DNA from: Bryobacteraceae bacterium
Lineage (GTDB): Bacteria > Acidobacteriota > Terriglobia > Bryobacterales > Bryobacteraceae
Length of the DNA stretch: 64,000 nucleotides
Assembly: GCA_019752335.1 (NCBI GenBank)
Contig: JAIEMJ010000030.1
Coordinates: forward strand, 86,597-150,596
Reading direction: 5' to 3'
The position numbers and the translations under genes are program-made. Below are positions 6,167 to 42,087 of this stretch, in pieces (position 1 is the first letter of the stretch; the number at the start of each line of letters is the position of its first letter). The notes below the pieces were generated by a model. It was not told where the DNA came from, made no database searches, and was given only the letters and a program-made list of their open reading frames with translations.

Positions 6167-7306
6167 TTAGCTCGAGGCGAGCGACTCAGCGTTGGTGACG
6201 GGGACTTGATCCACAATTTCGACGCCAAAGCCCTCCAGCCCGGGCACTTTGCGCGGATGATTCGTGAGCAAACGAATGCGCTTCAGGCCGAGGTCGGCGA
6301 GGATCTGGGCGCCAATGCCCGCTTCGTGTTGGGTTTCGTGATGAGGATCCGAGGGCGTAAAGCGCTGGAAGTCCTCTCCGTGGGTGAGGATGCGTTCGCC
6401 GTCGATACGGAGGCCGAGTCCGGTTTGGTGGAGGTAGACGACGACACCGGCGCCTTCGCGCGCAATGGCGGCCAGGCTTTGGTCGAGCAATTCGCGGCAA
6501 CGGCAACGCTGTCCGCCAAAAACGTCGCCATAGACGCAGTGGGAGTGCATGCGGACGAGGGCGGCGGGGCGCGCGGTGGGGTCGCCGAAAACGAGTGCGA
6601 GGTGGCGTTCCGGGCTCATCGAACTCGAGTAACTCAGCGTGCGGAAGGTACCGTGCGGGGTGTCAATCGAGCCGACCGCTTGGCGCGCGATGAAGCGCTC
6701 ATGCAGCATGCGGTAGCGGATGAGGTCGGCGACGGTGATGAGCTTTAGATCGTGTTTACGGCAGAAGACGGTAAGGTCCGGCAGGCGGGACATGGAGCCA
6801 TCGTCGTTCATGATTTCGCAAATGACGCCGCCGGGAGAGAGCCCGGCGAGGCGCGCGAGATCGACGGCGGCTTCGGTTTGCCCCGCGCGAACGAGGACAC
6901 CGCCTTCGCGGGCACGCAGGGGAAAGACGTGGCCGGGCCGGGCGAGATCCTCGGCGCGGGTGTTGGGGTGCATGCAGAGCTGAATGGTGAGCGCGCGGTC
7001 AGCCGCGGAGATGCCGGTGGATACGCCATGGCGTGCGTCAATGGATTCGGTAAAGGCGGTGCCGAAATTTGACGTGTTCTTCGGCGACATAAGCGGCAGG
7101 CCAAGAGCCTCGCAACGTTCGGGGCTGATGGCGAGACAGATGAGGCCGCGGCCGTGGACGGCCATGAAGTTAATGGCCTCCGGGGTGACGAAGTCGGCGG
7201 CGATGGTGAGGTCGCCTTCGTTCTCGCGGTCTTCGTCGTCGACGACGACGAGCATGCGTCCGCGACGAAAATCTTCAAGGGCGGCGGGGATCGACGCGAA
7301 GGGCAT
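6167..7306 (-). CDS. ribBA: Bifunctional 3,4-dihydroxy-2-butanone-4-phosphate synthase / GTP cyclohydrolase II
   Basis: DHBP synthase N-domain (RENEGDL, HGRG, FTESIDA) followed by a GTP cyclohydrolase II-like domain (CxCRC motif in [19 protein letters not shown]). Confidence 0.9.
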
Positions 7307-7534
7307 AGATACTTCTATTCTAAGATGCGCCGCGCGTGGCGCGAAAGTCTTTCCTTTTCAAACGGTTGCGCGCGGCTCTCGAAAACGTGCCGCACGCAGA
7401 ACGGCCGTTCACGCACAATTGGAAATTTATAAGCTTCTTATTTTCAACGCTTTAGTAAAAGCGGTGGGGTCAGAATTTTCAGCCGAATTGCTATTCTCAA
7501 ATCGGGCGAAGGGAAAACCGCCCAACGGAGCCGG

Positions 7535-8827
7535 ATGAAAGAGGAAACACGATGGCGAGATATTGGTTACAGCCCGCTGCCTTCCCAGGCGCGTTTTCAC
7601 CGGTTGAAGACTCGCTTCAAGGGTTTTTCCGGTCCGGTGGGATCGGGCAAGAGCGCGGCGCTATGCCAAGAGGCGATTCGGTTGGCTTACCGGAATCCGG
7701 GGCGTCTTGGACTGTTGGGCGCCCCAACTTATCCGATGCTGAAAGACGCTACGCAGCACAGTCTCCTGGAGATACTGGAACGGGCGCGAATTCCGTTTGA
7801 CTTGAATAAGTCGAATAACTACGTGATCCTCACGGAGTGTGAGGCGAAGATATTGTTTCGTTCGATGGAAGAGTACGAACGGCTGCGGGGAACGAATCTG
7901 GCATGGTTCGGCCTTGACGAATTGACTTACACGGCAGAGGCGGCCTGGTTGCGGTTAGAGGCCCGGCTGCGCGATCCGAAAGCGAAGTCGCTTTGTGGGT
8001 TTGCGGTGTGGACACCGAACGGGCAGGACTGGGTTTATCAGCGTTTCGTCGAGAAACGAATTCGTGGTTACGGAACCGTTTTGGCCAAGCCGTTTGAGAA
8101 TCGGTACTTACTTGAGGCGGTGCCTGACTATTATGAGCGGCTGAAGCACAGCTACGATACCCGCTTTTATGAGCAAGAAGCATTAGGGGCTTATCACGAA
8201 TCCGGCCGCGACTTAGTTTATCGGGCGTTTCAACGGTCAACGAATGTGCGCGCCGTCCCGGTGGACCCGAAGCAGCCGCTGCTGTGGACATTGGATTTCA
8301 ATGTCGATCCGATGTGCTCGTTGGTGGCGCAGCGTTCTGGCGAGTGTGTCCAAGTGATTGATGAGATTGTGATCCCGCGAGCTTCGACGGAAGAGGCTTG
8401 CGAAGAGTTTGTGCGGCGCTTTCCGCAGCACGCAGCCGGCGTAAGAATTACGGGGGACGCTTCGGGCAACCACCGGCAGACGTCAGGGACGACAGACTAT
8501 GACATGATCCGGCGTTTCTTTTGTCGGGTGGGTATGAAGGCGGTGAGTTATCACGTGCCGGCAGCCAACCCCCGCGTGGCGGATCGGGTTCGGCTCGTGA
8601 ACGCGAAATTGCAGAACGCGGCCGGCGCCGTGGAGCTACTGATCCACGAGAGATGCAAAGAGTTGTTGAAGGATTTCGCGGAGGTCCGGTATCGAGAAGG
8701 CACCGCGCTGATCGATAAGGACTCCGACCCGCGAAGAACACATTTGTCGGATGCGCTCGGGTATCTGATCTGGCAGGAGTTCGGCCCGCGCCCCGTTGTG
8801 GGCGAAAAGAACTTTCCGCTTTTCTGA
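7535..8827 (+). CDS. Phage terminase large subunit
   Basis: Walker A motif GPVGSGKS near the N-terminus, a Walker B-like LDELTY segment and a C-terminal nuclease-like region. First gene of the structural block. Confidence 0.8.
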
Positions 8828-8884
8828 GGCTGCCGCCTGGGGAAGCAGGCGATTTTTCAGAATTACGGCAAGGAGCTACAAATC

Positions 8885-10267
8885 GTGCTTGACATTACTC
8901 GCGAACACCCAGAATACGTGATGCGGCGTGTGACGTTTCAGCAGTACCGCGATCTCTACGCGGGTGGGGCACAGTTCGCGCTGAACTCTTATGCGTATTT
9001 GACGCCGAGGCAGAGGGAGCCACAGCAGGTTTACGCGGAGCGCGCCAGCCACGCCTATTACGAGAACTACATTGGCTCGATTATTGACTGGTATGCGGCC
9101 ACGTTATTTCGCCGCGAGCCAGTGATTACCCTGGACGGTGACAATGTCAGCGGGAAGCGCTTTTTCGGGCAACTCAACGACGACTGCGACCGCAAAGGAA
9201 CCGCGCTGACTGACTTTTTCCGAAGCCTCTTCACGGACACCCTGGTGCAAGGCGCGTCGCATATCCTAGTGGATTTTCCGCGGCCAGGAACGACGCCGCT
9301 GACCCGCGCCGAAGAGGAGGCACAGGGCATATCGCGGGCCTTCCTGGTGCCGTATACCGCGGAGGAATTGATCAACTGGAGCCGGGACCCGGACGGCAAC
9401 TACGAGTGGGTGGTATTGCGCACGTCGCAACTGCGGCAAGAGCGCATCGATGTGGGCGATTGGACGCCGGAGACCCGCTGGCTGTATCTGGATCGCACGC
9501 AGTACCGGCTATGGAGGCAAAGCTCGAAGCCGTCCTCAGGAAATTTGATTGAAATCGAGGACCAGGGTACGCACGCTCTCGCCAAGCTTCACCGGGTGCC
9601 CTTGTTCGACCTACGGGCGACGCAGGGGCTCTGGCTAATGAATAAAGCGGCTTCCTTGCAGCTTGAGCACTTCAATAAGTCGAACGCACTCTCCTGGGCG
9701 TTGACCAATGGCCTGTTCGCGACGCCGGTGGTGTACAGCGACAAAGAACTTACGCAAAATATCGGAGACAGCTACTTTCTCCAGCTAGGCGCGGGAGATC
9801 GCTTTGGCTGGACGGAGCCGCAAGGCAACGTGCATCACATTGCATCGCAGAATTTGGAGCGTCTACAAACGGAGATCTACCGGGTTTCCTACTTGCTGGC
9901 CCAAGCCGGCGGACCTTCGTCGGCCGCCCAATCCGGACTGAGCAAGCTGCGCGACTACGCCATCACGATTGAGATCCTCCGGGGCTACGGCGACATGGTG
10001 AAGGATTGTATGAAGCGGGTGCTGCGTACGATCGAACAGACTCGCGAGGATGGGCTCGCGATTGATGTCTCCGGACTGGACGAGTTCGATATCGCCGACT
10101 TCAGCAACGATCTCGACGAAGCAGAGCGTCTCTTGAAGCTCGGGATCGAGTCGCCCACGATGAAGCGTCAAGTCTTCAAGAAGCTTGCCTTGAAGTATCT
10201 TTGCGATGCGCGCCAGGAGCTAAAGGACCAGATCGCGGCGGAGATCGACGAGTCGCATCGCGGCTGA
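8885..10267 (+). CDS. Putative phage portal protein
   Basis: 460-aa protein immediately after the terminase and before the scaffold and capsid genes. Size and position fit a portal. No definitive motif was recognised. Confidence 0.5.
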   Translation: MLDITREHPEYVMRRVTFQQYRDLYAGGAQFALNSYAYLTPRQREPQQVYAERASHAYYENYIGSIIDWYAATLFRREPVITLDGDNVSGKRFFGQLNDDCDRKGTALTDFFRSLFTDTLVQGASHILVDFPRPGTTPLTRAEEEAQGISRAFLVPYTAEELINWSRDPDGNYEWVVLRTSQLRQERIDVGDWTPETRWLYLDRTQYRLWRQSSKPSSGNLIEIEDQGTHALAKLHRVPLFDLRATQGLWLMNKAASLQLEHFNKSNALSWALTNGLFATPVVYSDKELTQNIGDSYFLQLGAGDRFGWTEPQGNVHHIASQNLERLQTEIYRVSYLLAQAGGPSSAAQSGLSKLRDYAITIEILRGYGDMVKDCMKRVLRTIEQTREDGLAIDVSGLDEFDIADFSNDLDEAERLLKLGIESPTMKRQVFKKLALKYLCDARQELKDQIAAEIDESHRG

Positions 10268-10353
10268 TTGCCAAGCAACTTTTTGTCGACGGCGGGAGTG
10301 TCAAGGGTAATCCCCTGAAGCTGCCGCCGTTTTCTTTTTGAAAGGGGAACTCA

Positions 10354-10929
10354 ATGGAAGAAGAGCAAAGTAAGAGTCAAGCGGATGTGCGCGATGTAAT
10401 CCGCCAGGCGATTAACGACTTTGTCGCCACGGAACAGGCCAAGGCTGAACCGGCCTACAAAGCCGAACTCGCCGAGGAGCGCAAGCGGCGGGAGCAACTG
10501 GAACGCCGAATGAACGAGATGGCCGAGGAGAATCGGAAGAGCCGAGCCATCGCGGAGGAAGCGGAGCGTACGTCGACAATCCGGAGTGAGCTACAGCGCC
10601 TGGGGGTAGTAAAGCTCGATCTGGCTTATCGGGCCGTAAAGGACGACATCCAACGAACGGAGGACGGCCGTTTAGTCGGCCGCCAGGATGGCGAAGACCT
10701 GACCATCCAAAGCTACCTTAAGCAATTCGTGGAAGAGAATCCCGAGTTGTTGCCCGCGCGGATCACGGCCGGCATCGGCACCAGTCCGAATCGCGGTGGC
10801 GCCTCTGGCGCTTCTGCGCCGGCGAATCTCGACTTAGACCGGATTCGCCCGGGCATGAATCCAGAGGAGCTGGAGCGGGTGCGTCAAGAAATTGCGCGGG
10901 TGGCCAACCAGTCACTCCGCAACGGTTAA
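10354..10929 (+). CDS. Putative phage scaffolding protein
   Basis: 191-aa highly charged predicted coiled-coil protein (AEERKRREQLERRMNEMAEENRK) between the portal and capsid genes, preceded by an AAGGGG RBS. Confidence 0.4.
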   Translation: MEEEQSKSQADVRDVIRQAINDFVATEQAKAEPAYKAELAEERKRREQLERRMNEMAEENRKSRAIAEEAERTSTIRSELQRLGVVKLDLAYRAVKDDIQRTEDGRLVGRQDGEDLTIQSYLKQFVEENPELLPARITAGIGTSPNRGGASGASAPANLDLDRIRPGMNPEELERVRQEIARVANQSLRNG

Positions 10930-11014
10930 GTGAGCTATTCCAACCTTGAGCACGGGAACGATACGGTCCTGGGCTTGATTATCAACTAACTAAGTCAACA
11001 AAGGAGACTTTCGA

Positions 11015-11926
11015 ATGCCAACGATTACGTCCGCAAACCTCGCGCAAGCGATCGTGAAACTGGTTGCAGCCGATGCGCTGCCGGCCTTGGTGGGTAACCT
11101 GGTTCTAGGAAACCTCGTGAATCGGGACTTCGAGCCCATTCTTTCACAAGCCGGCAACACGGTGAACGTGCCGATTCCCCCGGTGATGGTGGCCAACAAC
11201 ATTGCCGAAGCCGGCGAAATCCAGACGCAGAATCCGAGTCTGGGCAATGCCCAGATTGTTCTGGATACGCACGCGGAAGCGAGCTTCCAGATTCCGGACG
11301 TCACCAAGGTGGTGGCTGTTCCGGAGTTGCTGAAGCTGTACATGCAGCCGGCGATTACCGCGCTGGCCGAGCGGGTAGAAACTGACCTGATGTCTCTGGC
11401 GCAGCAGTTCACCGCGAACTCCCCGCTGGGCACGGGCGGCTCGCCGCTAACGGAGGCGTTGGTGGACTCGGCAGAAACTGCTTTGTTCAGCGCCAAGGTT
11501 CCTTCGGCGCAGTCGAAGTATCTGGTGGTGGATCCAGCGGCCTATTCGCAACTTCGCCAGATTCCGCGATTCAGCGAATACCGGACGGCGGGTGAAGCCG
11601 GATTGCGCGCCCTAGTGGAAGGCAACGTAGGCCGCATCAAGGACTTCTACGTCTTCCGGTCGCAGTTCGTGGCGAAGTCCGGCAATGCTCCCCAGGTGAG
11701 CCACAACCTGGCTTTCGCTAAGGACGCGATCGGATTGGCCATCCGCCGCTTGCCGCAGCCGATCCCCGGCACCGGCGCCATCGCGGAGTATGCGGAAATG
11801 GGCGGCTTTGGCGTGCGCGTGTTGATGAGCTACCAGCCGAATACGCTGGCGCAGCAATTCACGGTCGATATTTTGTACGGGACGGGCATCCTGCGCAATA
11901 ACTTCGGCGTGCAGGTTCGCACCTAG
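11015..11926 (+). CDS. Putative phage major capsid protein
   Basis: 303-aa protein after the scaffold gene in an SPP1/lambda-like head module (no protease). The call rests on position and size. Confidence 0.5.
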   Translation: MPTITSANLAQAIVKLVAADALPALVGNLVLGNLVNRDFEPILSQAGNTVNVPIPPVMVANNIAEAGEIQTQNPSLGNAQIVLDTHAEASFQIPDVTKVVAVPELLKLYMQPAITALAERVETDLMSLAQQFTANSPLGTGGSPLTEALVDSAETALFSAKVPSAQSKYLVVDPAAYSQLRQIPRFSEYRTAGEAGLRALVEGNVGRIKDFYVFRSQFVAKSGNAPQVSHNLAFAKDAIGLAIRRLPQPIPGTGAIAEYAEMGGFGVRVLMSYQPNTLAQQFTVDILYGTGILRNNFGVQVRT

Positions 11927-12014
11927 TTACCAGCTCACTAACCTCGCGCTCGGGCTACCGCTCCGGCGGTAGCCCCTTCTTCAAGACTTCGAATTCCGAA
12001 TAGGTGAAACAAAG

Positions 12015-12365
12015 ATGAATCTTCGAGACTTTTACAACAAGGTGCGCGCAGTGCTCAACACGATTGACGTGCCTTTTGTCGTTCTGGTGAGTAAGACAAC
12101 TACGGATGGCGGCAAAGAAGGAGTGATGACGCTAGTTAAGCGCGAAACCGCCGCGCGTTTGATCGTGGAAGACCGGGCGCGGCTGGCAAGCGCTGAAGAG
12201 TCCGGTGTCTATTTTGCGGATGAAAGCGCGAAGCGGCAGGCCTCGGAAGCGGAACGCCGGTTTCACGCCACTAAGCTAGCCTTCCGGTCCGGCGAGGTGG
12301 TCGAGCAGTTTTGCGAACTCCAGGAAACCCTAGAGCCCGTGAAGAACTCCAAGCGCGATAGCTAG
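12015..12365 (+). CDS. Phage hypothetical protein (head completion/connector candidate)
   Basis: Small ORF between the capsid and tail genes, co-directional and tightly spaced. Confidence 0.4.
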   Translation: MNLRDFYNKVRAVLNTIDVPFVVLVSKTTTDGGKEGVMTLVKRETAARLIVEDRARLASAEESGVYFADESAKRQASEAERRFHATKLAFRSGEVVEQFCELQETLEPVKNSKRDS

Positions 12366-12392
12366 CTCTGTCGCTGGAAACAGAAAGGGAAT

Positions 12393-13154
12393 GTGATGGC
12401 ACTCTTCAACGATGGGCCGATATCTTCGCTAGAAGATTTGCGGGTGTACGAAACGTCATTGCTCGATACCGCGAGTATCGAAGGCGTCAGCCTGGCGAAC
12501 AAGCTGGATCTCGCCGGACAGGAGCTCGGAGGTGAAATCCTTCGTTTCCTGATTCAACAATTGGAGCCAGCGGAGTCAATCGGCCCCGGCAAGCTGGACC
12601 AAGTAGTGGCTACCGACCCGTTGCGGCGTTGGCACGCGCTGAGAACCCTAGCGATCTTCTTCCGCGATGTGCATCACAATCAGCTCAATGACCGCTACCG
12701 GGCCAAATGGAACGCCTACGAAGCGGAAGCAAAGTCCGCCGCGCGGCTGCTTTGGGAGGTAGGAGTCGGCACGGTGAGGAATCCTCTCCGCCGGCCAATG
12801 CCTCCTGTGCTGGAGATCTTGTCGACGGACGACGAGTATCCCCAGTTGCTCTTCAAAACTACCTGGGTCACCGGCAATGGCGCGGAGAGCGCCGCGAGTG
12901 GCGCAACCCTATTCGCCGGCGGTATCGGCCTGAAGCCGCAGTTGACGGTGAACAATCCTCCCCAGCGTGCGACCGGATGGAACATCTATGCCGGTGTTAC
13001 GGAGGCTACGCTCTCCCGGCAGACACCAAGCCCCCTACCGTTAAACGAAGTGTGGGTAATGCTGGGCAACCAGCCGGTTTCTGGAAGCTCCGTGCCGGAT
13101 GGACAAGCCCCAGATCAGTATGTGCGCCTGCAGCGGCTCTTGTTTCGAGGATAA
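12393..13154 (+). CDS. Phage hypothetical protein (head-tail connector candidate)
   Basis: 253-aa ORF in the head-tail joining position. Confidence 0.4.
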   Translation: MMALFNDGPISSLEDLRVYETSLLDTASIEGVSLANKLDLAGQELGGEILRFLIQQLEPAESIGPGKLDQVVATDPLRRWHALRTLAIFFRDVHHNQLNDRYRAKWNAYEAEAKSAARLLWEVGVGTVRNPLRRPMPPVLEILSTDDEYPQLLFKTTWVTGNGAESAASGATLFAGGIGLKPQLTVNNPPQRATGWNIYAGVTEATLSRQTPSPLPLNEVWVMLGNQPVSGSSVPDGQAPDQYVRLQRLLFRG

Positions 13155-13159
13155 TCACC

Positions 13160-13657
13160 ATGGCGAAAACGGCACGAAACGCACTTCGTAAGCTAGCCAA
13201 TCAAATGGCGGCCGAGACAGGATTGCTCTACACCGTGGGCGCGATAGCGCAGCGGGAGAAAGTTGAACTGGCGCCGATTTCCGGCGCGCACATTGTTTCG
13301 CAACATGTGGCGGCTGAGCTAATCGAAAAGAGCGCGGGCGCCCAGTATCCTCGCGTCCACCTCTACTGCGAGAAGATCACCAACCACTTGAAAGAGAAAT
13401 TCCGGACGTTTTCCGGGACCGTGCGGTTAGTAGCGGAGGTCCGCGCGTCCTTTGATCGCGCCGAGGCTCTGGAGCCGTCTCTGATGCTCTACGTGGATGC
13501 CGTCACTGACGTACTCGATAGTCATCGGGGCGACTGGGGAGACGGCTTCTTCTTTACCGGCGGCTATGAAGTTAGTTTTTCACCGATGAAACACGGCGGG
13601 AAGAACTTCATTCAGTCCGCCAAAATCGTTTTCGAAGTGAATGCCAGCCAGGGTTGA
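13160..13657 (+). CDS. Phage hypothetical protein (tail completion candidate)
   Basis: An ATG at 13160 (MAKTARNALRKL...) lies 5 nt after the stop of the previous gene. The track ORF 12707..13657 is a 5'-extended artefact overlapping the neighbour. Confidence 0.4.
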   Translation: MAKTARNALRKLANQMAAETGLLYTVGAIAQREKVELAPISGAHIVSQHVAAELIEKSAGAQYPRVHLYCEKITNHLKEKFRTFSGTVRLVAEVRASFDRAEALEPSLMLYVDAVTDVLDSHRGDWGDGFFFTGGYEVSFSPMKHGGKNFIQSAKIVFEVNASQG

Positions 13658-13692
13658 GCCCGACGGCTAGATGAAGGAATTAGGAGTTTTCG

Positions 13693-14862
13693 ATGGCCTG
13701 TTACATCTCGTCAAATAACAATCGTTTTTACGTAGCGCTGGAATCGTCGTATGGCGAAGTGGCGGCCGTCGCGAACGCCCGCCGTTTTGCGGGCATCCAA
13801 TTGCGCGCTCGCCAGCAAGCGGTGCAGCTTGACCGCCGGGACAAGACTGGAAGCCGGACGTTCCTCGGCCTGCCGGCGGGCGTGAAGCGGCAAACCTCGT
13901 ATCAGCTTCGTACCTACCTTGCCGGCTGGAGCGACCAAGGCATTGAGCCATCCCAGGGCCCCTTGATTCGGGCGTCCTTAGGTGCTCCGGTTCGCCTCGC
14001 GGGAACTCACACCTTGGCCAGCGCTTCGGGAACCACGCTCAACTTCACGGCGGCTCATGGCTTGGCCGTGGGCGAAGCCGTCACTTTCGGTTCAGAAATC
14101 CGCTTCGTCGCCGCGATTCCGAATGCCCAGAGCGTGGTGTTGAATGTGCCCTTCACGCTGGCAGCGACCGCCGGTTCCGTACTGGGACCTACGGCCTCCT
14201 ATGCGCCGGCCAATAGCCTGGCCAGCTTCAATCTATTCGACTATTGGTCACCGGAGACAGCCGTGCATCGCATCCTGGCCGGAACCGCGGTGGACCGCAT
14301 GGCGGTGAAAATCAATGCCGATTTCCATGAATTCGAATTTCGCGGCCCGGCGCGCGATCTGATCGATAGCGTTAGCTTTGCGCCTGGCGATGGCGCGCTG
14401 GCAAGCTTTCCTGACGAACCCAACATCGCCGACTTCGAGTCGAACATTGTTCCGGGCCATTTGGGACAGGCTTGGTTGGGTGCAAATCCAGAACGCTTCT
14501 ACACGATCACGGAAGCCGAGTTTACCCTCGACAATAACATCGACGTGCGAGACCGCGAGTTTGGCTCGACGCTGCCACGTTGCCTTTCGGCTGGGTTGCG
14601 TGATGTCCGCCTGAACTTTACCTTGCATGAGCAAGACGACGCGGCTACGAAGAGCCTCTATCAAGCAGCGCGGCAGCGTTCGCCGATCAGTGTGATGCTG
14701 CAACTCGGTCAACAGGCCGAGCAGATGTTTGGCATCTACCTGCGCAGCATAGTACCGGAAGTGCCGGAGTTTGACGATGGCGAGACGCGGCTGCAATGGC
14801 GATTCACTGGCTCACGAGCACAGGGATCCGCGAACGACGAAGTGTTCCTTGCTTTCGCCTAA
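13693..14862 (+). CDS. Putative major tail protein
   Basis: 389-aa ORF immediately upstream of the G/G-T chaperone pair and the tape-measure gene, which is the conserved siphovirus position of the tail tube protein. Confidence 0.35.
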   Translation: MACYISSNNNRFYVALESSYGEVAAVANARRFAGIQLRARQQAVQLDRRDKTGSRTFLGLPAGVKRQTSYQLRTYLAGWSDQGIEPSQGPLIRASLGAPVRLAGTHTLASASGTTLNFTAAHGLAVGEAVTFGSEIRFVAAIPNAQSVVLNVPFTLAATAGSVLGPTASYAPANSLASFNLFDYWSPETAVHRILAGTAVDRMAVKINADFHEFEFRGPARDLIDSVSFAPGDGALASFPDEPNIADFESNIVPGHLGQAWLGANPERFYTITEAEFTLDNNIDVRDREFGSTLPRCLSAGLRDVRLNFTLHEQDDAATKSLYQAARQRSPISVMLQLGQQAEQMFGIYLRSIVPEVPEFDDGETRLQWRFTGSRAQGSANDEVFLAFA

Positions 14863-14874
14863 GGATGGCCAAAC

Positions 14875-15240
14875 ATGAACTACGCACCTACGATCGAAGT
14901 AGATTCAACCTGGGCACCAGGGGTTAGCTATCGCATCGCGCGAATGTCCTTCGCGCGGCGTCTCGAGCTTACGCGGCAGGTCCGCGCCCTCTTGGCCAGG
15001 ATGGAGTTTCACGTTGCCGGCGAAAGCCCACTGGACAAGGTAGACGCAGCCACGTTATCCATGGAAATCGACCGGCTTTACTGGGAATGGGGCCTAGTGG
15101 GCATTGAAGGTCTGCTGATCGGAGGCGAGGCCGCGGGCCGGGAGAACCTGCTGGAAAGCGGGCCTGAAGCCTTGGTTCACGAAATCCTCGCCCGCATCAA
15201 GTCCGAATGTGGACTGAGTGAAGAAGAACGAAAAAACTAA
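14875..15240 (+). CDS. Tail assembly chaperone, lambda gpG-like
   Basis: 121-aa acidic ORF between the major tail and tape-measure genes. It ends with the slippery heptamer A_AAA_AAC immediately before its TAA stop. Confidence 0.55.
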   Translation: MNYAPTIEVDSTWAPGVSYRIARMSFARRLELTRQVRALLARMEFHVAGESPLDKVDAATLSMEIDRLYWEWGLVGIEGLLIGGEAAGRENLLESGPEALVHEILARIKSECGLSEEERKN

Positions 15241-15575
15241 TTGTCGCATTTCACTTTCAGCGTTCGGATCCAGCCGCTTGGAAGTGCGACACGTGCCGTC
15301 AGCAGCGGCTGGATCGAACACGCCGTTGCGCATTTCTGCCTGTGGAAGCCATGGGGCCGACGCGAACCGTGTGGGCGCGCGGACGGGCGGCGACCTCGCA
15401 ATGCCCGAAATCCGTAATTTCTGCTGACTCGCTTTCGTTACTGGAGACATTCTCCGCGTGGAGACTTCTCGGGCCGGGCGCGGTTTGGCAGTTACCCGCA
15501 AAAACTGTCGACGCATTATTTGTGTTGCAGAACGAATGGAGGTCATTAGAATCCGATGCCGAATCCACTTATTGA
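14875..15575 (+). CDS. Predicted G-T-like fusion chaperone made by programmed -1 ribosomal frameshift
   Basis: The -1 frame opens after a TGA at 15219-15221 and stays open for about 112 codons to a stop at 15573-15575, overlapping the start of the tape-measure-like gene. The slip site A_AAA_AAC sits at 15231-15237. Confidence 0.5.
15231..15237 (+). other. -1 PRF slippery heptanucleotide A_AAA_AAC
   Basis: X_XXY_YYZ pattern in the zero frame of the gpG-like gene, two codons before its stop. Same class as the dnaX and lambda G-T sites. Confidence 0.5.
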
Positions 15576-16161
15576 TCAATTGCTACGGGCTACTCTGCCG
15601 AGCCAAGTGACGAAGGATGATGGTCTACTTGGGCCTGCCGCGGAGGCGCTCCGTACACTTACCTCCCAAATTGAAAGCCTGCGTGGACTCTACCAGTCTC
15701 AGACCGTGCAGACGGCTGAGAACACGACGGCGGTCCTGCAGAATACGCGCTCCCGCGCTGCGGATGCCGGATCGACGGCGAGTACGATCGTGAAGACCGC
15801 CGGCAGCGCGCTTGGTGGCGGTCTGACTCTATTTCCGTTAGTCTCCGGTCTGGCCAAGCTTTTCGGGTTTGGGGGAAAGAAGGAAGAGGTGCCGGCGCTG
15901 TCGCCATTTGCTCTTCCCTCTGCCGTCGACTTGGATGGTGGCGTCAGCCAGAGTGGCTCGTCCGCGGTTGGGAGCGTCTCTTACGGACAGAATGGCCTGC
16001 CGCGCCGGACACCAACCGCGGCGAGCGGCCCCAATATCAGCGTGAATGTGCAAGCTATGGACGCCCGATCCTTTCTCGACCACAGCGACGACATCGCTCG
16101 TGCCGTGCGGGAAGCGATGTTGAACTCGCATCCGCTGAACGACGTGATCTCGGAGGTATAG
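15556..16161 (+). CDS. Putative short tail tape-measure protein
   Basis: Helical N-terminus plus a Gly-rich hydrophobic segment (GSALGGGLTLFPLVSGLAKLFGFGG) typical of tape-measure proteins. Lies directly after the G/G-T pair. Only 201 aa. Confidence 0.45.
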   Translation: MPNPLIDQLLRATLPSQVTKDDGLLGPAAEALRTLTSQIESLRGLYQSQTVQTAENTTAVLQNTRSRAADAGSTASTIVKTAGSALGGGLTLFPLVSGLAKLFGFGGKKEEVPALSPFALPSAVDLDGGVSQSGSSAVGSVSYGQNGLPRRTPTAASGPNISVNVQAMDARSFLDHSDDIARAVREAMLNSHPLNDVISEV

Positions 16162-16163
16162 AC

Positions 16164-16520
16164 ATGCCAGACTTTCCTCAACTCCGAACCAACGTGGTAA
16201 TGCAATACCCAGCGCAACGCGTCTTGACTTACTCAACGCAGGTGCTGCGGTTCATGGATGGGTCAGAACAGCGATTTCGGACCTGGGCGGGCGCGTTGCG
16301 GGAATGGTCAATCCGGCTGGATCTGCTTAGTGAGGATGAACTGAGTACTTTTCGCGACTTCTTTCGAGATCGGGCCGGACGCGCGCAGAGTTTTCGCTTT
16401 ATTGACCCGTGGGACGGCGCCGAGTATCCGAAGTGCACGCTGGACGAGGACGACTTCGAAGCAGTACTGAGAGGCGAGGGCCGCGGAGATCTAAGTCTAA
16501 CGGTGAGGGAGTCACGATAA
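16164..16520 (+). CDS. Phage minor tail protein, lambda gpM-like
   Basis: 118 aa. Shares the pattern TYSxxL...LSEDEL..F....G...SFxFxDPW with lambda gpM (TYSVTLS...LESFLEEHGGWKSFLWTPP). Confidence 0.5.
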   Translation: MPDFPQLRTNVVMQYPAQRVLTYSTQVLRFMDGSEQRFRTWAGALREWSIRLDLLSEDELSTFRDFFRDRAGRAQSFRFIDPWDGAEYPKCTLDEDDFEAVLRGEGRGDLSLTVRESR

Positions 16521-16523
16521 GTC

Positions 16524-17336
16524 ATGCCGGCAACTAAAGTATTTCCGCAACTTGCTTCTGGTGCGATTACACAGTATCCACTGCGCAGCAAGGAATACCT
16601 GCGCACGTTAGTGAATCAGACCGCGGATGGCCGGCGGATCCGTTATGCGGATGTTGGCGCGTCGATGATGGCGTGGGAGATGACGCAATCGGCGCTGTCG
16701 GACGAGGAATGGACCGCGCTTGAGACACTGTTTCGTGCTTGTGAAGGGCGAAGGCACTCGTTTCTGTTTCTCGACCCATGGTCGAACTTAGTCGCCTCGA
16801 GCGAGGACTTCGGCAACGCCGCGTGGCAAGCTGCACCTGGACTCGGTCTGAGTTCGGGGGTGCAAGATCCGGAAGGGCGTCCGCGAGCGACGCAGGTAAC
16901 TAACTCGGCGGCTGGGTTGCAGTCGCTCAGCCAGAGCCTCAGTGTTCCAGCCAATTTTCAATACTCGTTCAGCGTGTACGCGCGGGCGGCAAGCACCGCG
17001 GACTTACGTCTCATTGTGTCGGCCGACGGAGCTTTCGCGGAACGTCTTTTCGAGTTGTCGGCGAATTGGCAGCGGTACACCCTTTTCAGCGCTCTGTCCT
17101 CCACGGCAGAATCGCTGGAGGTGGCGATGCAACTGCCAGCCGGCGTAACGGTCGAGTTGTTCGGAACGCAGATGGAAGCCCAGCCGGCCCCGTCGCCCTA
17201 TCAACGCACGGGCCTGCGAACCGGGCGGTATCCGGAAACGCGCTTCGCTGGCGATACGTTGACACAAGTCTCTACCAGCCCTGGCGAACACTCGACCGTA
17301 GTTCGAATTCTGAGCCGAGCAAACGGCTCTACTTAG
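16524..17336 (+). CDS. Phage minor tail protein (gpM-like N-domain plus extension; gpL-position)
   Basis: The N-terminal 100 aa are paralogous to the preceding gene (FPQL..QYP...LSxEE...F....GR.HSFLFLDPW). A C-terminal extension of about 170 aa follows. Confidence 0.45.
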   Translation: MPATKVFPQLASGAITQYPLRSKEYLRTLVNQTADGRRIRYADVGASMMAWEMTQSALSDEEWTALETLFRACEGRRHSFLFLDPWSNLVASSEDFGNAAWQAAPGLGLSSGVQDPEGRPRATQVTNSAAGLQSLSQSLSVPANFQYSFSVYARAASTADLRLIVSADGAFAERLFELSANWQRYTLFSALSSTAESLEVAMQLPAGVTVELFGTQMEAQPAPSPYQRTGLRTGRYPETRFAGDTLTQVSTSPGEHSTVVRILSRANGST

Positions 17337-17355
17337 TTCAAGAGAAGGAACGTTT

Positions 17356-20300
17356 ATGCCCACGGCACTCGAATTAAAAGACCAGCAGACTCCAGAGACG
17401 CCGATACTCTTGTTTGATTGCCGCTTGGCCAACGGAAGCACCGAACGGTGGAGCACACATCAACTAACATTCGAAGGCAATGCCTACGCCGCGCGCGTGC
17501 TAGAACACAGTTCCTTTGATATGAAGGCCGAAGACGACGGCATTTCTCGCGTCGGCCTGTTGATGGCCAACGCGGATAGCTATTTTTCACAGCTTGAGCG
17601 AAGCGCGGGGCTGAAAGGCGCAAACCTGGATGTAAGGCTAGTGTTCTGGAACCTCTCAAGTAGTCTCCCTGCTTCTACCCCAGTAATGCTCTTCCGTGGA
17701 CTGGGAAATGCGCCCGAAGAGACAACCGAGTCGACGATGCGACTGAGCTTTGTCAATCGGTTGAGTCCGCAACGAATCCTATTACCGAGCGTACGCATCC
17801 AGAAGCGCTGTCCTTGGCGATTTCCATCCACGCCGTCTGAACGTGGGGAGGCACCGTCCGGTCTCGACGAAGGAAAGTACTCGCCGTTCTTTCGTTGCGG
17901 ATACTCGCCGGATCAGCCAGGAGGCGCCGGTAACCTGGATGCAAACGGCGCTCCATTTACAACTTGCGACTTTACCCGGACGGCTTGCGAACAACGCGGG
18001 ATGTTCTCCAAAGATGCCAGCCACCGGCAAACGCGGCGCTTTGGCGGTATCGAGTTTGTGCCGGCGAGTATTCTGGTGCGCGGCGCGGGAGAGCAGAACT
18101 CCCGCGTCTCGAATCTCTTGGACAACGAGGCGCGCTACAACGACTTCGTTCCGATGATTCACGGTACGGCCTGGTATCAGCCGCCCATGGTGTTCGCGCG
18201 TAACGACGGCAATCTGACGCGCATGGAAATCCTGCTCGGTATGGGCGAGATGCAGGGCGTCATCAAGGTCGTCGTGAACGATATTGAGATTCCTCTGGGC
18301 GTCGACGGACAGAACATGACGGCTACGGGCTGGTACAACGTCGTATCGCTGGGGAATCGTACGGGCGGCTTTAATCTGAACTTTACGGACACCAGCGGAG
18401 GCCCTCTCGGTGATCCCTATGGCAGCATGGCGTTTGCGTCGGTGGTAGTGCCGAATCGCATTGCGGATGGAAAGCGTCTGCCAACCGTGAAGGTGCTGGT
18501 GAATGGGATCAAGGTGTCGCGCTTTGACGAAGAATCCAACTACTTAGACGACGCCTTTACGGCGAACCCCGCATGGATCATGCTAGACCTGCTGCGTCGT
18601 TCTGGGTGGGCGATGCGCGAGCTGGACATTAGCAGTTTTGCGAAAGTGGCGGCTCATTGTGACGCTCCGGTGGCGACCAGTGACTTACACGGTACTAGCG
18701 TAACGGTTCCGCGTTACGAAACGAATCTCGTATTGCGGCGCCGGCGCTCTGCCGCCGAGATCTTACGTGGTTTGCGCAACGCCGCGGCCCTCTACCTGAC
18801 GTTTGGACCAGAAGGAAAGCTGCAACTGAAGCTCGAGAGTAAGATCGCGGTCAGCCAGCCAGCGAAGCCGGCTGGCTCGAATTCCAGCGAACCGTTGTTC
18901 GGTGGTTGGCCTGCCTACGAGTTTTCCGAGAGTTCGATACTACGGCGCGAAAACGGTAGCGCGGCCTTTCGTCTCTCCAGCCGGGCCAACTCGGACTCCC
19001 CAAATCGCTTCACACTGGAGTTTCAGGACGCATTCAACGAATTTCAACAAGATAGCCTGTCGATTGTCGACGTCGATGACGCGGAACGCACGGGCCAGGA
19101 TATGGCTGCGTCGATCAATGCGCTAGGCATTCCCCAATTCGATCAGGCGGCGCGCATTATCCGGCTGAATCTGGATAAGTCACTGCGTGGAAATCTCTAT
19201 GCCGAGTTCGAGACGAGCATCAAGGCGCTGGGTCTGCGGCCGGGCGACCTGATCACCATCACCTATGCCAAAGAAGGCTTTGACCGGCAGCTCTTCCGAG
19301 TGCAGCGGATCCAACCACAGGCGAACTTTACTAAGGCCGTGATCACCGCCCAGCTCCACGATGAGAACTGGTATCTGCAACCCGGCTTTCCGGGCAGCGC
19401 CTCTCGATTCAGCGGCACGGCTGGACTTGGTGTCCCTCGTCCGTTGGTGGGCACAGAACTGGACTCCGATGGATTGCCCCGCTTCGGCGTGACGGAGATC
19501 GTTACGGGTGACGAAGTCGGGTTGCGAGTCAGCTTCCGGCCTCCGGCCAAGCCACAAGACTCTGGAGCGTCTCGCCCGTTACTCGGACTCACTCCGGATA
19601 TTGAGAGCACCGGTGGCACCTTAGCGGGCAGACAGAGTTACTACTATGCGGTGAGCGCGCTGGACGCGGCTGGCGCGGAGAGCCGACTGTCGTTTATTGT
19701 ACGCGCGACCATTGCCGCGTTGACGAACACGAATCGCGTCCGCTTGACGAACCTTAGCTTTTCTCCGGGTAGTTCAGGTTTTGTGGTTTATCGTGGCACT
19801 ACGCCGCAGCAACTGCTGCGCATTGCCAAAGTCACTTCTTTAGCTATTGACTTTGTCGATACCGGATTGACGCCGGAATTGGTTCCACCGCCCGATGAGA
19901 ACTATCAGGAAGCGCGCTTTTACTGGCGGCTCGAACTCTATCCGGAGATTGTGGCCAATCAGTTTACCCCTACTACGATTGGAAACTCGACCATTGCCCT
20001 CACGGCAGATTCGTTTACTGGTTCCGTAGTAAGAATCACGCGAGGACGGGGAGCGGGTCAAGAACGCACGATTCAGGCTAACAGCACCACGGCCTTGGCC
20101 GTTTCGCCGGCCTGGAGCGTGGTACCGGACGCCACGAGTTACTTTGTCGTCGCCGAAGCCGGTTGGAAACTGGGCGCTATCAGCCCGACTAGCCCGGCCG
20201 AGTTTCCGATTCCCAACCGGGGCGGCACGACACTGCAGATCGCCGGCCGGTCGGCAAACGCGAACGGACAGGAGAGTGCTCCTGAGTTGTCTCCGCTAAC

Positions 20301-21252
20301 TCGTTGGCAAATTGGCGGTGGATCTAGTGGCGGCGGTCTGGACGCAGGCTTGCCTCCCGAGCCTTCTTTTGCTTTCCGCCGTGTGCAAGATGGATCGCTA
20401 GAGTTGGCCGCCATAGGGTTTCCAACTTTCACCAACACGCGCACCATCTCTGGTGGAACGCTCACGCTCTATGCCTGGAACGAGCTAAGGTCTCCATCGA
20501 CTCAGTTACTCGCAACCGGAATCGATGCCGTGACCACCTCGGTTACGGTAAGTAACCCAAGGCCAACGGCTGCCGTCGTTGGTGACTTAGTCCAGCTCGG
20601 CGCGGAAATTCTTCGTATTACAGCGATCTCACCCGACGGCCTCACTTACTCGGTTGACCGCGCCGTCTACGACTCCACCGCGGAGACTTATGGCCCCGGA
20701 ACGCCGCTTTACTACCTCGACAAAAATGTCTTCGTGATTCCGTTCGTCAGGGACTTCTTCGGCAGCCCGGCCAGCGGCCGGTATAGCCAGCAGGTTTACT
20801 GGCCGAACGTACGCGCCGCCGCCGCTGATCTTACCGTCACGAACATTTACGGCCCCTCGCCGACGGCATCCATGAACCTGACCAGTACCACGGCGCTTGG
20901 CCTGCGCACGCTATCGGGAGGCCAACTGACACTACAGTACGACGGCCCGCTCGCCATCGGTTCGAGCGTTACGCCGATCTTGCTGGTAGAGCGGCAACAA
21001 GCCATCGGTGAGATTTTCGCGGTGGTGGCTGATGCGCCCACGGGCGGCCCGGTGGTCGTTCGCGTCATGCGCAATGGCCTGGCTTACGCGGAGGTAACCA
21101 TCAATGCCGGCATGACGCAGTCGAACACGGCCAGCGGGTTCGGGTTGCCTCCTCTCGAAGCCGACGAGCGCCTGACGATTGACATCGTCAATGTGCCCTC
21201 TTCCGCGGCCGGAACTCCGGGCCGCGACTTGACGGTGATCCTGACGCGCTAA
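17356..21252 (+). CDS. Phage host-specificity / central tail fibre protein, lambda gpJ-like
   Basis: 1298 aa. Contains NPAWIMLDLLRRSGWAMRELDISSFAKVAAHCDAPV followed by PRYETNLVLRRRRSAAEILRGL, which matches the conserved gpJ/GTA-g15 core (NMAWCLWDMLTHPRYGMG...CDQSVPDG...PRITCNAYL). Confidence 0.75.
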   Translation: MPTALELKDQQTPETPILLFDCRLANGSTERWSTHQLTFEGNAYAARVLEHSSFDMKAEDDGISRVGLLMANADSYFSQLERSAGLKGANLDVRLVFWNLSSSLPASTPVMLFRGLGNAPEETTESTMRLSFVNRLSPQRILLPSVRIQKRCPWRFPSTPSERGEAPSGLDEGKYSPFFRCGYSPDQPGGAGNLDANGAPFTTCDFTRTACEQRGMFSKDASHRQTRRFGGIEFVPASILVRGAGEQNSRVSNLLDNEARYNDFVPMIHGTAWYQPPMVFARNDGNLTRMEILLGMGEMQGVIKVVVNDIEIPLGVDGQNMTATGWYNVVSLGNRTGGFNLNFTDTSGGPLGDPYGSMAFASVVVPNRIADGKRLPTVKVLVNGIKVSRFDEESNYLDDAFTANPAWIMLDLLRRSGWAMRELDISSFAKVAAHCDAPVATSDLHGTSVTVPRYETNLVLRRRRSAAEILRGLRNAAALYLTFGPEGKLQLKLESKIAVSQPAKPAGSNSSEPLFGGWPAYEFSESSILRRENGSAAFRLSSRANSDSPNRFTLEFQDAFNEFQQDSLSIVDVDDAERTGQDMAASINALGIPQFDQAARIIRLNLDKSLRGNLYAEFETSIKALGLRPGDLITITYAKEGFDRQLFRVQRIQPQANFTKAVITAQLHDENWYLQPGFPGSASRFSGTAGLGVPRPLVGTELDSDGLPRFGVTEIVTGDEVGLRVSFRPPAKPQDSGASRPLLGLTPDIESTGGTLAGRQSYYYAVSALDAAGAESRLSFIVRATIAALTNTNRVRLTNLSFSPGSSGFVVYRGTTPQQLLRIAKVTSLAIDFVDTGLTPELVPPPDENYQEARFYWRLELYPEIVANQFTPTTIGNSTIALTADSFTGSVVRITRGRGAGQERTIQANSTTALAVSPAWSVVPDATSYFVVAEAGWKLGAISPTSPAEFPIPNRGGTTLQIAGRSANANGQESAPELSPLTRWQIGGGSSGGGLDAGLPPEPSFAFRRVQDGSLELAAIGFPTFTNTRTISGGTLTLYAWNELRSPSTQLLATGIDAVTTSVTVSNPRPTAAVVGDLVQLGAEILRITAISPDGLTYSVDRAVYDSTAETYGPGTPLYYLDKNVFVIPFVRDFFGSPASGRYSQQVYWPNVRAAAADLTVTNIYGPSPTASMNLTSTTALGLRTLSGGQLTLQYDGPLAIGSSVTPILLVERQQAIGEIFAVVADAPTGGPVVVRVMRNGLAYAEVTINAGMTQSNTASGFGLPPLEADERLTIDIVNVPSSAAGTPGRDLTVILTR

Positions 21253-21287
21253 CAAAGATGCTCTAATTGAGGTGAAAGGAAATCCCG

Positions 21288-21773
21288 ATGGAAGTCGAAA
21301 TGAAAATTCGCACACTGATGATGGATCCCGTCACCCAAATGCCCATCGTGATCCTACGCGATGTAGCCGGTGAGACGATCCTCCCGATTTGGGTGGGCGT
21401 TTACGAGGCCAACGCCATTGCGCTGGAGATTGAAAAAGTCTCCACGCCGCGGCCGATGACCCACGACCTAATCAAAACGATCGTTACTGGCCTAGACGTA
21501 ACGGTACAAAAGGTAGTGGTGAACGAACTGCGCGACGACACCTTCTACGCGCTGATTTGGATGGACAAAGGCGGCCAATCCGTTTCGGTCGACGCCCGGC
21601 CCAGCGACGCGCTGGCCTTAGCTCTCCGGCTCGATTGCCCCATCTTTGTCGACGATCAGGTCCTGAAGACCTCGAAAATGGCGACTACGGCCAGTGACAA
21701 GAATAATAACGAAGAGCTTCGCCGTTGGCTCGAGCAACTGAACGACGAAGACTTCGGCCGCTACAAAATGTAG
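21288..21773 (+). CDS. Bifunctional nuclease (BFN, DUF151) domain protein
   Basis: Family pattern: ...QMPIVILRDVAGETILPIWVGVYEANAIALEI...RPMTHDL...TFYALIWMDKGGQSVSVDARPSDALALALR... The start lies 35 nt after the gpJ-like stop, co-oriented, with an AAAGGA RBS. Confidence 0.7.
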   Translation: MEVEMKIRTLMMDPVTQMPIVILRDVAGETILPIWVGVYEANAIALEIEKVSTPRPMTHDLIKTIVTGLDVTVQKVVVNELRDDTFYALIWMDKGGQSVSVDARPSDALALALRLDCPIFVDDQVLKTSKMATTASDKNNNEELRRWLEQLNDEDFGRYKM

Positions 21774-22062: not shown

Positions 22063-22689
22063 TTGCCGCCTTACCTGATCGCGATTGCCGGACCCTCCGG
22101 CGCGGGCAAAAGCTACCTCGCCCACCACCTCGCCGCAGCCCTACCCGCCGAGGCCGCCGTCCTGTCCCTCGACTCTTACTACCGCGAGTTGACCAGCCTC
22201 AGCTACGACGAACGCTGTCTCTTCAATTTCGACCACCCCAGTTCCCTGGACCAACCCCTGCTGCTGCAACAACTGCGCGACGTCGCCGCCGGCAAGACTA
22301 TTGAGCGCCCCATTTATCAGTTCGAAACTCACTCCCGCGCGCCCCACACCGAGCGATTCGCCCCCCCGCCCTTCGTGATTCTGGAAGGCATCTTCGCGCT
22401 GTATTTCCCCGAAATCCGCGACCTCGCCCAACTCAAAGTCTTCGTCGAAACCCCCGACGGCCTCTGCTTCGACCGCCGGCTCCGCCGCGACACCACGGAG
22501 CGCGAACGCACCGCCGAATCCGTCACCCGCCAATACGACGAGACGGTACGCCCCATGGCCGCCGAGTATGTCTGGCCCACGGCCGCCTTCGCTGACCTCG
22601 TCATTCCAGGCAATCAGCCCATCGCCGAGTCTCTCCGCCAAGTGCTGGCCGCGATGCCCCAAATGGCTACGGCCGCGGGCAAAGATTGA
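22063..22689 (+). CDS. udk: Uridine kinase
   Basis: P-loop IAIAGPSGAGKSYLA at the N-terminus and uridine kinase/PRK family core (FDHPSSLD, VILEGIFALY). Confidence 0.85.
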   Translation: MPPYLIAIAGPSGAGKSYLAHHLAAALPAEAAVLSLDSYYRELTSLSYDERCLFNFDHPSSLDQPLLLQQLRDVAAGKTIERPIYQFETHSRAPHTERFAPPPFVILEGIFALYFPEIRDLAQLKVFVETPDGLCFDRRLRRDTTERERTAESVTRQYDETVRPMAAEYVWPTAAFADLVIPGNQPIAESLRQVLAAMPQMATAAGKD

Positions 22690-30590: not shown

Positions 30591-30820
30591 TGTGATCTCC
30601 CTGTTATTTGCTGCGGTACGGCTGCTCGCGGTATGTGGACGCTATTCTATCATTCGGCCCTGCGATGGGGTAGCGAACGCAAACAGTCCGTAATGAAGCA
30701 ATGGGCGTACGCGGAGTACGGGCTCCTATCGTCAATCTGCGCTAGTGGCTGACACGATGGCACTACTGCCCTCCGTGATGTCCGGAAGACGAAACGTGTA
30801 CCAGCGGATCTCTCCCCGCC

Positions 30821-42071: not shown

Positions 42072-42087
42072 GAAAGGGAGTTACGTT

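Follow-up and report, generated by a model that had tools for sequence, protein, structure and literature searches.

A cluster of phage-type packaging, head and tail genes was found on the forward strand of a 64-kb stretch of contig JAIEMJ010000030.1 from a Bryobacteraceae bacterium (this whole stretch of analysed DNA is referred to as the window). The particle cluster spans 13.7 kb (7535–21252) and consists of 13 co-directional genes with intergenic gaps of 2–88 nt, the sole exception being a gap of 315 nt which contains a frameshift extension. It is flanked at its 5′ side by ribBA and at its 3′ side by a bifunctional-nuclease (BFN) gene and then udk (Table 1). Every protein of the window was compared by tblastn with related loci, of which 49 (referred to as the full loci) were long enough for gene order to be judged. 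The order of genes from the large terminase (TerL) to the gpJ-like tail protein is identical in all 49, and the distance from the start of TerL to the end of the gpJ-like gene has a median of 13,578 bp (range 12,859–14,400, n = 64).

An earlier note on this DNA, made from the sequence alone, had described a complete and tightly packed packaging, head and tail gene set on the forward strand between core housekeeping genes, and had proposed it as a candidate gene transfer agent (GTA). Every gene class that it listed was found, and the housekeeping genes on either side were identified as ribBA and udk. The 5′ limit given for the block stands, but the 3′ limit (21773) does not, as the open reading frame (ORF) of the host BFN nuclease had been included and the true end lies at 21252. 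The search of each ORF with hidden Markov models (HMMs) that the note had called for was conducted with Pfam and PHROG, and identified TerL, the portal, the capsid, a pair of DUF2460 proteins and the gpJ-like protein.

Gene products of the particle cluster

Table 1. Positions of the particle cluster genes, associated elements and bordering host genes in the window.
Feature	Position	Strand	Evidence
ribBA (5′ flank)	6167–7306	−	
Conserved non-coding block, possible promoter-proximal/leader element	7487–7534	+	Just 5′ of the TerL ATG
Large terminase TerL, 430 aa	7535–8827	+	Pfam Terminase_6N, E 3e-6; phrog_2, E 8e-34
Portal, 460 aa	8885–10267	+	phrog_145, E 2e-49; weak DUF4055 match; PDB portal chains, e.g., 8ts6, E 2e-8
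Scaffolding-protein candidate, 191 aa	10354–10929	+	Between portal and capsid genes; strongly charged, coiled-coil-like
Major capsid, 303 aa, P22-coat/Phage_capsid_4 family	11015–11926	+	PF11651 (P22_CoatProtein), E 6e-18; phrog_283, E 4e-39
Head-tail connector candidate, 116 aa	12015–12365	+	Position; no HMM match
Head-closure-like protein, 253 aa	12393–13154	+	phrog_8040 (head closure Hc3), matched by 4 of the 27 family members
Neck or tail-terminator candidate, 165 aa	13160–13657	+	C-terminal half of a 316-aa ORF; ATG at 13160
Major tail tube, 389 aa, tandem double-domain (T5 pb6/P74-26 type)	13693–14862	+	phrog_290; Foldseek on model
Tail assembly chaperone G, 121 aa	14875–15240	+	Between tube and tape-measure genes; 47 of 49 loci
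Slippery heptamer A_AAA_AAC with −1-frame T extension (G-T fusion)	15231–15237; extension to 15575	+	Sequence
Short tape-measure-like protein, 201 aa	15556–16161	+	Weak match to the C-terminus of tape-measure phrog_3779, E 0.002
Distal-tail (Dit)-like protein 1, 118 aa	16164–16520	+	PF09343 DUF2460 (N-terminal domain), E 5e-16; 48 of 49 loci
DUF2460-domain protein 2, 270 aa	16524–17336	+	PF09343, E 3e-8; paralog of the preceding gene
gpJ-like central tail fiber/tip protein, 1298 aa	17356–21252	+	PF13550 Phage-tail_3, E 1e-10; phrog_31 (central tail fiber J), E 4e-22
BFN gene (3′ flank)	21288–21773	+	BFN_dom; 35 nt 3′ of the gpJ-like gene
udk (3′ flank)	22063–22689	+	

In TerL, the Walker A (G.GKS), Walker B (WFG.DEL) and C-terminal-half (nuclease) motifs are invariant across 62 aligned sequences, the ATPase and nuclease roles of these motifs being presumed from what is generally known of terminases, and the protein has a median identity of 60% to its counterparts in 43 genome loci. 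The portal was found in all 49 full loci. For the protein encoded between portal and capsid no match was obtained in the Pfam and PHROG HMM searches; it is named a scaffold candidate for its position and composition, scaffolding proteins typically being strongly charged and coiled-coil-like, and it is kept in 49 of the 49 loci with a median identity of 56%. Homologs of the capsid bear a precomputed PF25209 match and the capsid profile matches the PDB capsid chains 8zdh and 9jwb, while an AlphaFold2 model of this protein (pLDDT 48) was too poor and was not used. The capsid is 73–78% identical in all of the full loci and is nearly always 301–303 aa in length, and together with the portal and the scaffold candidate it ranks among the most conserved products of the cluster.

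Three connector-sized proteins had been predicted to follow the capsid, and three are indeed present (116, 253, and 165 aa), but the last of them had been taken for a 316-aa ORF. Its homologs align to residues ~151–316 of that ORF only, and 165 aa is the length that gene callers assign to it in six related contigs (L161–L168). Homologs of the 116-aa connector candidate occur at the same position in 42 of the 49 loci (called at 112–115 aa in L161–L166), and the head-closure-like gene is present in all 49 with a median identity of 35%.

The profile phrog_290 matches 26 of 27 members of the tail tube family, some homologs carry a precomputed PF18906 match, and one source names the product "phage tail tube protein." An AlphaFold2 model of the tube (pLDDT 82, pTM 0.83) was compared with the PDB using Foldseek, which returned the tube of phage P74-26 (8ed0, E 3e-14) and the T5 pb6 entries 7qg9_A, 9iny, and 5ngj; matches to the P74-26 and T5 tubes ranged from E 3e-14 to 1e-9 with TM-scores of 0.45–0.64, at a sequence identity of only 12–14%.

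The G/G-T chaperone pair with −1 programmed frameshifting, proposed from the sequence alone, could be located precisely. The heptamer A_AAA_AAC ends 6 nt before the stop codon of chaperone G, the −1 frame opens just before it, and the resulting T extension overlaps the start of the tape-measure gene. The heptamer recurs with unchanged spacing to the stop codon in 109 of 118 loci, and a homologous −1-frame extension of ~107–130 aa follows it in the loci listed.

The tape-measure-like protein has a Gly-rich hydrophobic center. Among 125 loci of the conserved type, 123 have 374–1500 nt from the end of chaperone G up to the first DUF2460 gene, so that a tape measure of only ~150–330 aa can fit there. 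Tail length follows tape-measure length at ~0.15 nm per residue, and by this rule the 201-aa protein predicts a tail of ~30 nm, against 135–150 nm for the phage-like relatives described below. One locus, L169, has the gene order of the window, but here 4.8 kb separate the chaperone from the first DUF2460 gene.

Residues 81–205 of the 270-aa DUF2460 protein gave profile matches to the head-spike fiber Rcc01080 of RcGTA, the GTA of Rhodobacter capsulatus (6tb9_F3, E 3e-4), and to the xylanase chains 3jxs and 1k42, with a weak match of the protein to the distal tail protein 8gtc_G as well. These matches suggest that its middle domain may be carbohydrate-binding-module-like. The gpJ-like protein aligns over its full length in nearly all of the 49 loci (median identity 49%). 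In L168, an extra gene of 933 aa (17524–20325, forward strand) with a weak TIM-barrel_NCTSP match lies 3′ of the gpJ-like gene and may represent an added tail-spike-like protein.

As the earlier note had stated, the modules on which a temperate phage would depend were not found. A Pfam search of 37 flanking and distal ORFs of the window revealed no integrase, repressor, replication or lysis family; nine of these ORFs had no Pfam match and a few small ORFs lay outside the scan. The ORFs scanned gave host functions only, plus one GmrSD-like restriction gene. There is no tRNA in the window, and the two borders of the cluster have no direct repeat of at least 11 nt in common, where flanking att repeats would have spoken for a prophage. 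Within the cluster, Pfam detected no prohead protease family and no g13-like or g14-like hub or peptidase family.

What is found in the window and in the related loci is thus what defines a GTA locus in its gene content, namely a chromosomal head-and-tail cluster lacking replication, lysogeny and regulatory modules. With no integrase, att site or tRNA, repressor, replication or lysis genes, the cluster is not an intact prophage. Nor is it a tailocin, which would have tail genes only, because TerL, portal, scaffold-like protein and capsid are all present. Capsid-forming phage-inducible chromosomal islands, which we take to carry integrase, regulatory and replication genes with their own capsid and packaging genes and no tail genes, are a poor fit as well, because the cluster has a full tail module and integrase and replication genes were not found.

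Two other regions of the window were distinguishable. The region 29021–33626 has a low GC content at third codon positions (0.62–0.66 vs. ~0.8 elsewhere in the window) and contains a GmrSD_N (DUF262) restriction-like gene on the reverse strand and ORFs of 621 and 201 aa without a Pfam match; it looks like a small defense island, unrelated to the particle cluster. At 42043–48824, on the forward strand, lies a Tad/Flp-type pilus cluster comprising RcpC/CpaB, a secretin, a ParA-like ATPase, a T2SSE ATPase and a T2SSF protein.

Distribution, neighborhood and selection

Relatives of the capsid were found in at least 559 species-representative genomes (one genome per species), which are labeled Bryobacterales, Bryobacteraceae, Solibacteraceae, Paludibaculum, Bryobacter, Acidobacteriota or less specifically, with a few discordant labels. 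The carriers include closed chromosomes of 6.6–6.9 Mb, and the 80 loci which were kept derive from 80 different metagenome-assembled genomes (MAGs) or isolates. In total, over 5,000 relatives of the capsid are present in the database; each of the best 120 has 303 aa and an identity of 75% or higher, and contigs of 0.1–4.9 Mb carry many of them. The capsid and tube of the window are 100% identical to K2X03_20580 and K2X03_20600 of a Bryobacteraceae MAG. Four cluster contigs (L013, L022, L026, and L055) are labeled Bordetella, Arcobacter or Rhodospirillales, and some close TerL homologs are labeled Acidobacteriaceae. These discordant labels are probably binning or naming errors, though the cluster may also reach beyond the Bryobacterales.

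The cluster also has at least 553 relatives in IMG/VR, where the contig is often essentially the cluster alone. Such contigs are what would be expected of virus-prediction tools picking out a structural block within host DNA.

The synteny that the earlier note had expected of a GTA holds for the order of genes, conserved over hundreds of species, but chromosomal position is conserved only within genus- to family-level groups. Among 149 neighboring ORFs, Pfam identified ribBA, ilvB/ilvN, proline dehydrogenase, SurA and families of that kind, and other loci are flanked by a trp operon, by a che-like kinase, or by nitrite reductase with Ada. No integrase or other phage family is among the 25 most frequent of the 122 Pfam families in these ORFs, and an IS110-type transposase family accounts for two of the 149. 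Adjacency to ribBA is restricted to the lineage of the window and to Bryobacter MAGs. Two-sided synteny with the window is seen in L166 (ribBA, cluster, BFN, small ORF, udk, SBBP, PALP), L167 retains the downstream half of this arrangement, and host genes are found on both sides of the cluster in the window, L161, L163, L164, L166, and L168.

Selection was assessed as Nei-Gojobori ratios of nonsynonymous to synonymous divergence (dN/dS, omega) against the closest relatives available, in which the capsid is 94% identical. Even here dS exceeded 1.5 or was not computable, and all ORFs were intact. dN was 0.04 for the capsid, ~0.1 for TerL, portal, tube and gpJ-like protein, and 0.2–0.3 for the small tail proteins, and because synonymous sites are saturated dN/dS can only be bounded. 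Within one related group of loci capsid omega was 0.013–0.057, rising to 0.14 in more distant pairs. All of this is far below 1 and indicates strong purifying selection, as the note had expected if the cluster were a GTA.

In the same comparisons ribBA had a dN of 0.06–0.11, from which it follows that the cluster has diverged about as far as its housekeeping neighbor; ribBA of the window is only 62% identical to that of the Bryobacter MAGs. Within syntenic groups the identity of flanking genes and that of portal or capsid rise together (pooled Spearman 0.50, p = 4e-5, and up to 0.81 within a group, these pairs not being independent). The GC content of the cluster minus that of its flanks has a median difference of −0.005 over the 49 loci. 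Vertical inheritance and purifying selection, which a GTA should display, are therefore both seen, at a locus which is not conserved order-wide.

Approximately 50 nt immediately 5′ of TerL (the non-coding block of Table 1) are nearly invariant in the window, L001, L081, L082, and L166 despite the saturation of synonymous sites. A small hairpin with one compensatory pair is predicted to overlap the TerL start codon. The block is not shared with more distant loci, and no upstream motif is common to all 49 loci, with no 9-mer occurring in more than seven of them. An FMN riboswitch in the spacer between ribBA and TerL was considered and rejected, as Rfam returned nothing at the gathering score or at E ≤ 1. 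Also rejected was a 184-aa ORF at 6984–7538, which is antisense to ribBA and whose matches (L023, L061, and L166) are all antisense to ribBA too.

At the 3′ border the BFN gene is on the same strand as the cluster. It is 97% identical in L166 and L167, against 79% for the adjoining gpJ-like gene, and tblastn against the loci showed that it is not downstream of the cluster in other lineages. For these two reasons it is probably a host gene outside the element.

Relation to known particles and phages

The size and content of the cluster had been likened to elements of the RcGTA type. This comparison stands for a structural-only head-and-tail cluster of ~14 kb amid host genes, conserved order-wide under purifying selection, and for the families of the tail tip, but it does not extend to descent. 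The tail tip of the cluster shares the families DUF2460 (PF09343) and Phage-tail_3 (PF13550) with the RcGTA proteins g12 and g15, respectively, as we understand these to be classified, and the domain of the 270-aa protein resembles the RcGTA head-spike fiber as described above. The tape measure of RcGTA is presumably also short. The head genes are different: the cluster has a P22-coat/Phage_capsid_4 type capsid with a scaffold-like protein, unlike RcGTA, which we take to have an HK97-type capsid and a prohead protease. The tube is of the double-domain T5/P74-26 type rather than single-domain, with the RcGTA tube chain 6tba_50 matched at E 0.05 only. Searches of PDB sequences with the capsid and tube profiles, the portal and the gpJ-like protein returned no RcGTA chains, though 6tb9, 6tba, and 6toa were in the library. 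The hosts differ too, being Acidobacteriota (Terriglobia; Bryobacterales) for the cluster and Alphaproteobacteria for RcGTA. The cluster is thus RcGTA-like in its tail-tip families and not in its head genes, tube or host, and the different capsid and tube and the failure to return RcGTA chains suggest that its origin is probably independent of RcGTA.

To our knowledge, only about five independent origins of GTAs are known, none of them in the Acidobacteriota. BaGTA, VSH-1, Dd1, and VTA, like the PBSX-like defective prophages of Bacillus, are host-encoded, phage-derived particles which are not self-propagating. PBSX keeps regulatory and lysis genes beside its structural genes, unlike the cluster, which has no such genes adjacent to it. 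The first four, of Bartonella, Brachyspira, Desulfovibrio and Methanococcus, respectively, are instances of repeated phage domestication (Lang et al., 2012, as related in PMC12142844). The statement of the earlier note that such elements are not described for Acidobacteria agrees with full-text searches combining GTA with Acidobacteria, Acidobacteriota, Bryobacter or Solibacter, which gave no description. Among the papers found, one gives no more than a count of predicted prophages, one for Bryobacter aggregatus and one for Candidatus Solibacter usitatus (Eichorst et al., 2018; PMC5900883), and another links viral operational taxonomic units of peat to Candidatus Solibacter and brings up GTAs solely as something from which non-viral reads might derive (Trubl et al., 2018; PMC6172770).

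With the siphophages T5 (pb6), P74-26 and DT57C the cluster has in common the fold of the tube and the order of G/G-T chaperone, tape measure, Dit-like protein and large tip. These are complete lytic phages with large genomes, whereas the tape measure of the cluster is only ~200 aa. No close cultured phage was found among 50,697 phage records, in which the best capsid match was 27% identical (actinophages) and the tube had no match. Members of the capsid family in a library clustered at 50% identity grade continuously from 72% to ~31% identity.

Nearer to the cluster are four phage-like contigs of 26–54 kb, L171–L173 and L151 (IMGVR_UViG_3300031576_001304, IMGVR_UViG_3300045921_000619, IMGVR_UViG_3300048591_001280, and IMGVR_UViG_3300024978_000020, respectively), two of which are also listed a second time (L171/L192 and L173/L194). 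Their capsids are 67–74% identical to that of the window and their packaging and head genes are in the same order, but TerL is ~49%, the portal 31–34% and the tube 29% identical. In addition they have extra structural genes between capsid and tube, tape-measure ORFs of 913–989 aa against 201 aa in the window, and, 5′ of TerL, a Dam-like and GNAT fusion, ParB-methylase fusions and DUF1492, all of phage type. They look like genuine phages or prophages related to the ancestor of the cluster.

Probable domestication and possible function

Given this gene content, conservation and mode of descent, we consider it very likely that the block is an anciently domesticated, vertically inherited head-and-tail cluster of the Bryobacterales. 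What the particle does is a separate matter. GTA function is the best-supported mechanism and is favored here, if with much less assurance than domestication itself. That particles are made, loaded with DNA, released by the cell and active in transfer is what we infer from sequence. The host would express the cluster and produce small tailed particles, in which a scaffold would serve to assemble a P22-type capsid, and which would have a portal, a non-contractile T5/P74-26-type tube with a tail of ~30 nm, and a gpJ-like tip with a carbohydrate-binding-like module. Host DNA would be packaged by the headful with little sequence specificity and then delivered to related cells. Headful packaging of host DNA is taken as the most likely activity because TerL keeps both its ATPase motifs and those of its C-terminal (nuclease) half. 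Together with these motifs, the lack of a recognizable sequence-specific small terminase bears indirectly on whether the packaged DNA would be essentially random.

For the wider proposal the balance is about even. It holds that the clusters make up an order-wide GTA family of the Bryobacterales, of an origin independent of every described GTA, whose ancestor would have been a siphophage that combined a capsid of the P22 type with a tube of the T5/P74-26 type. Under this proposal the ancestral module would have been streamlined to ~13.6 kb with the tape measure shortened five-fold, and the packaging genes would have moved out of the cluster in some lineages.

A number of observations weigh against domestication or against transfer. 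Chromosomal position is not conserved across the order, and past mobility is possible for that reason. The capsid is ~70% identical in the phage-like contigs too, so that its conservation alone is no evidence of domestication. Within the window the GC content of the cluster is 0.585 as compared to 0.622 for the remainder, and lysis genes were not found there.

The variable 5′ end of the cluster belongs among these observations. In 38 of the 49 full loci (e.g., L006, L009, and L013) a conserved ORF of ~90–105 aa ends at or overlaps the TerL start. Its N-terminal half is basic, and toward its C-terminus lies a motif that resembles GDFIRLLQLEKEL...PKEIKVTWVEP. This ORF is absent from the window, as judged by tblastn and by a family HMM run over all six frames. 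Its product may be a small terminase or a regulator of the cluster, the former being a positional guess because the family has no PHROG match and no PDB profile match. The earlier note had listed the small terminase as missing from the window; most relatives bear this small extra ORF 5′ of TerL. Five loci resemble the window in having TerL and no small upstream ORF, and six have neither.

These six loci (L016, L023, L044, L046, L048, and L061), in which TerL is not beside the cluster, belong to several separate lineages. Two of them are Bryobacter MAGs in which ribBA abuts the portal gene, and the same arrangement recurs in L063, a third MAG, which has Bryobacter-like flanks but falls short of the length needed for inclusion in the 49. 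A TerL HMM found no displaced copy within the six loci, and three close TerL homologs on long contigs each adjoin a normal cluster. Either the packaging genes are dispersed elsewhere in these lineages or packaging is dispensable. In L168, TerL is split in two frames, which may be a long-read assembly error.

The most serious alternative is a domesticated particle with a role other than transfer, such as a PBSX-like killer or bacteriocin, a phage decoy or defense, or a delivery device, in which packaging would be incidental or absent. We regard this as unlikely, yet as the one alternative of real weight, since conservation and selection would fit any host-beneficial function equally well. The six TerL-less clusters are fully intact, with a capsid omega of 0.013–0.05 and a dN as low as in their TerL-bearing sisters L043 and L064, and the large gpJ-like tip together with the carbohydrate-binding-like module suggests that binding to cell surfaces has been preserved. 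Set against this, TerL is present in 43 of the 49 loci with its ATPase and C-terminal-half motifs invariant, portal, scaffold and capsid are among the best conserved products, which implies that DNA-filled heads matter, and the cluster has no linked toxin or lysis cassette.

It is considerably less probable that the cluster supplies the structural genes of an element which is still mobile, either a temperate phage family or a satellite-like element whose other genes lie elsewhere or are supplied by a helper. The variation in genomic position between lineages would suit such an element, as would the phage-like contigs, the capsid continuum that reaches ~31%, and the classification of hundreds of copies as viral in IMG/VR. 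Against it stand the host genes on both sides of the cluster in the window and five related loci, the absence of integrase from the frequent families of neighboring ORFs, and the absence of flanking repeats and tRNA. There is also two-sided synteny between genomes at saturated synonymous sites, with divergence tracking that of the neighbors, and no two of the 80 loci kept share a MAG or isolate. An actively hopping element is unlikely.

The eroded prophage that the earlier note had offered as its alternative, a functionless remnant decaying neutrally, would account for the missing lysogeny, replication and lysis genes, for the small ORF absent from the window, and for TerL being missing in some lineages and frameshifted in L168, but it is excluded for practical purposes by 13 intact and co-linear genes in hundreds of species at saturated dS (order identical in 49 of 49), dN/dS far below 1, a conserved slip site and catalytic motifs, uniform cluster length, host flanks and divergence that tracks the neighbors.

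As a domesticated particle, the cluster would represent a new domestication event in a new phylum, from a different phage lineage and probably of independent origin. The short-tape-measure clusters and their long-tape-measure, methylase-bearing relatives together offer a before-and-after view of phage domestication. At least 553 IMG/VR entries are probably host loci and not viruses, and counts of host linkages and "prophages" for Acidobacteria may be inflated as a result; if the reading is true, the cluster would systematically be mistaken for a virus in soil viromes and in IMG/VR. The element is widespread, open to experiment, and bears on how soil viromes are interpreted. With hundreds of soil and freshwater species of Bryobacterales concerned, gene exchange in slow-growing bacteria that are hard to culture becomes testable, and the cultured genera Bryobacter, Paludibaculum and Candidatus Solibacter could be used if isolates carry the cluster. 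Should GTA function hold, genes would be exchanged by a major unrecognized route within a phylum that ranks among the most abundant in soil.

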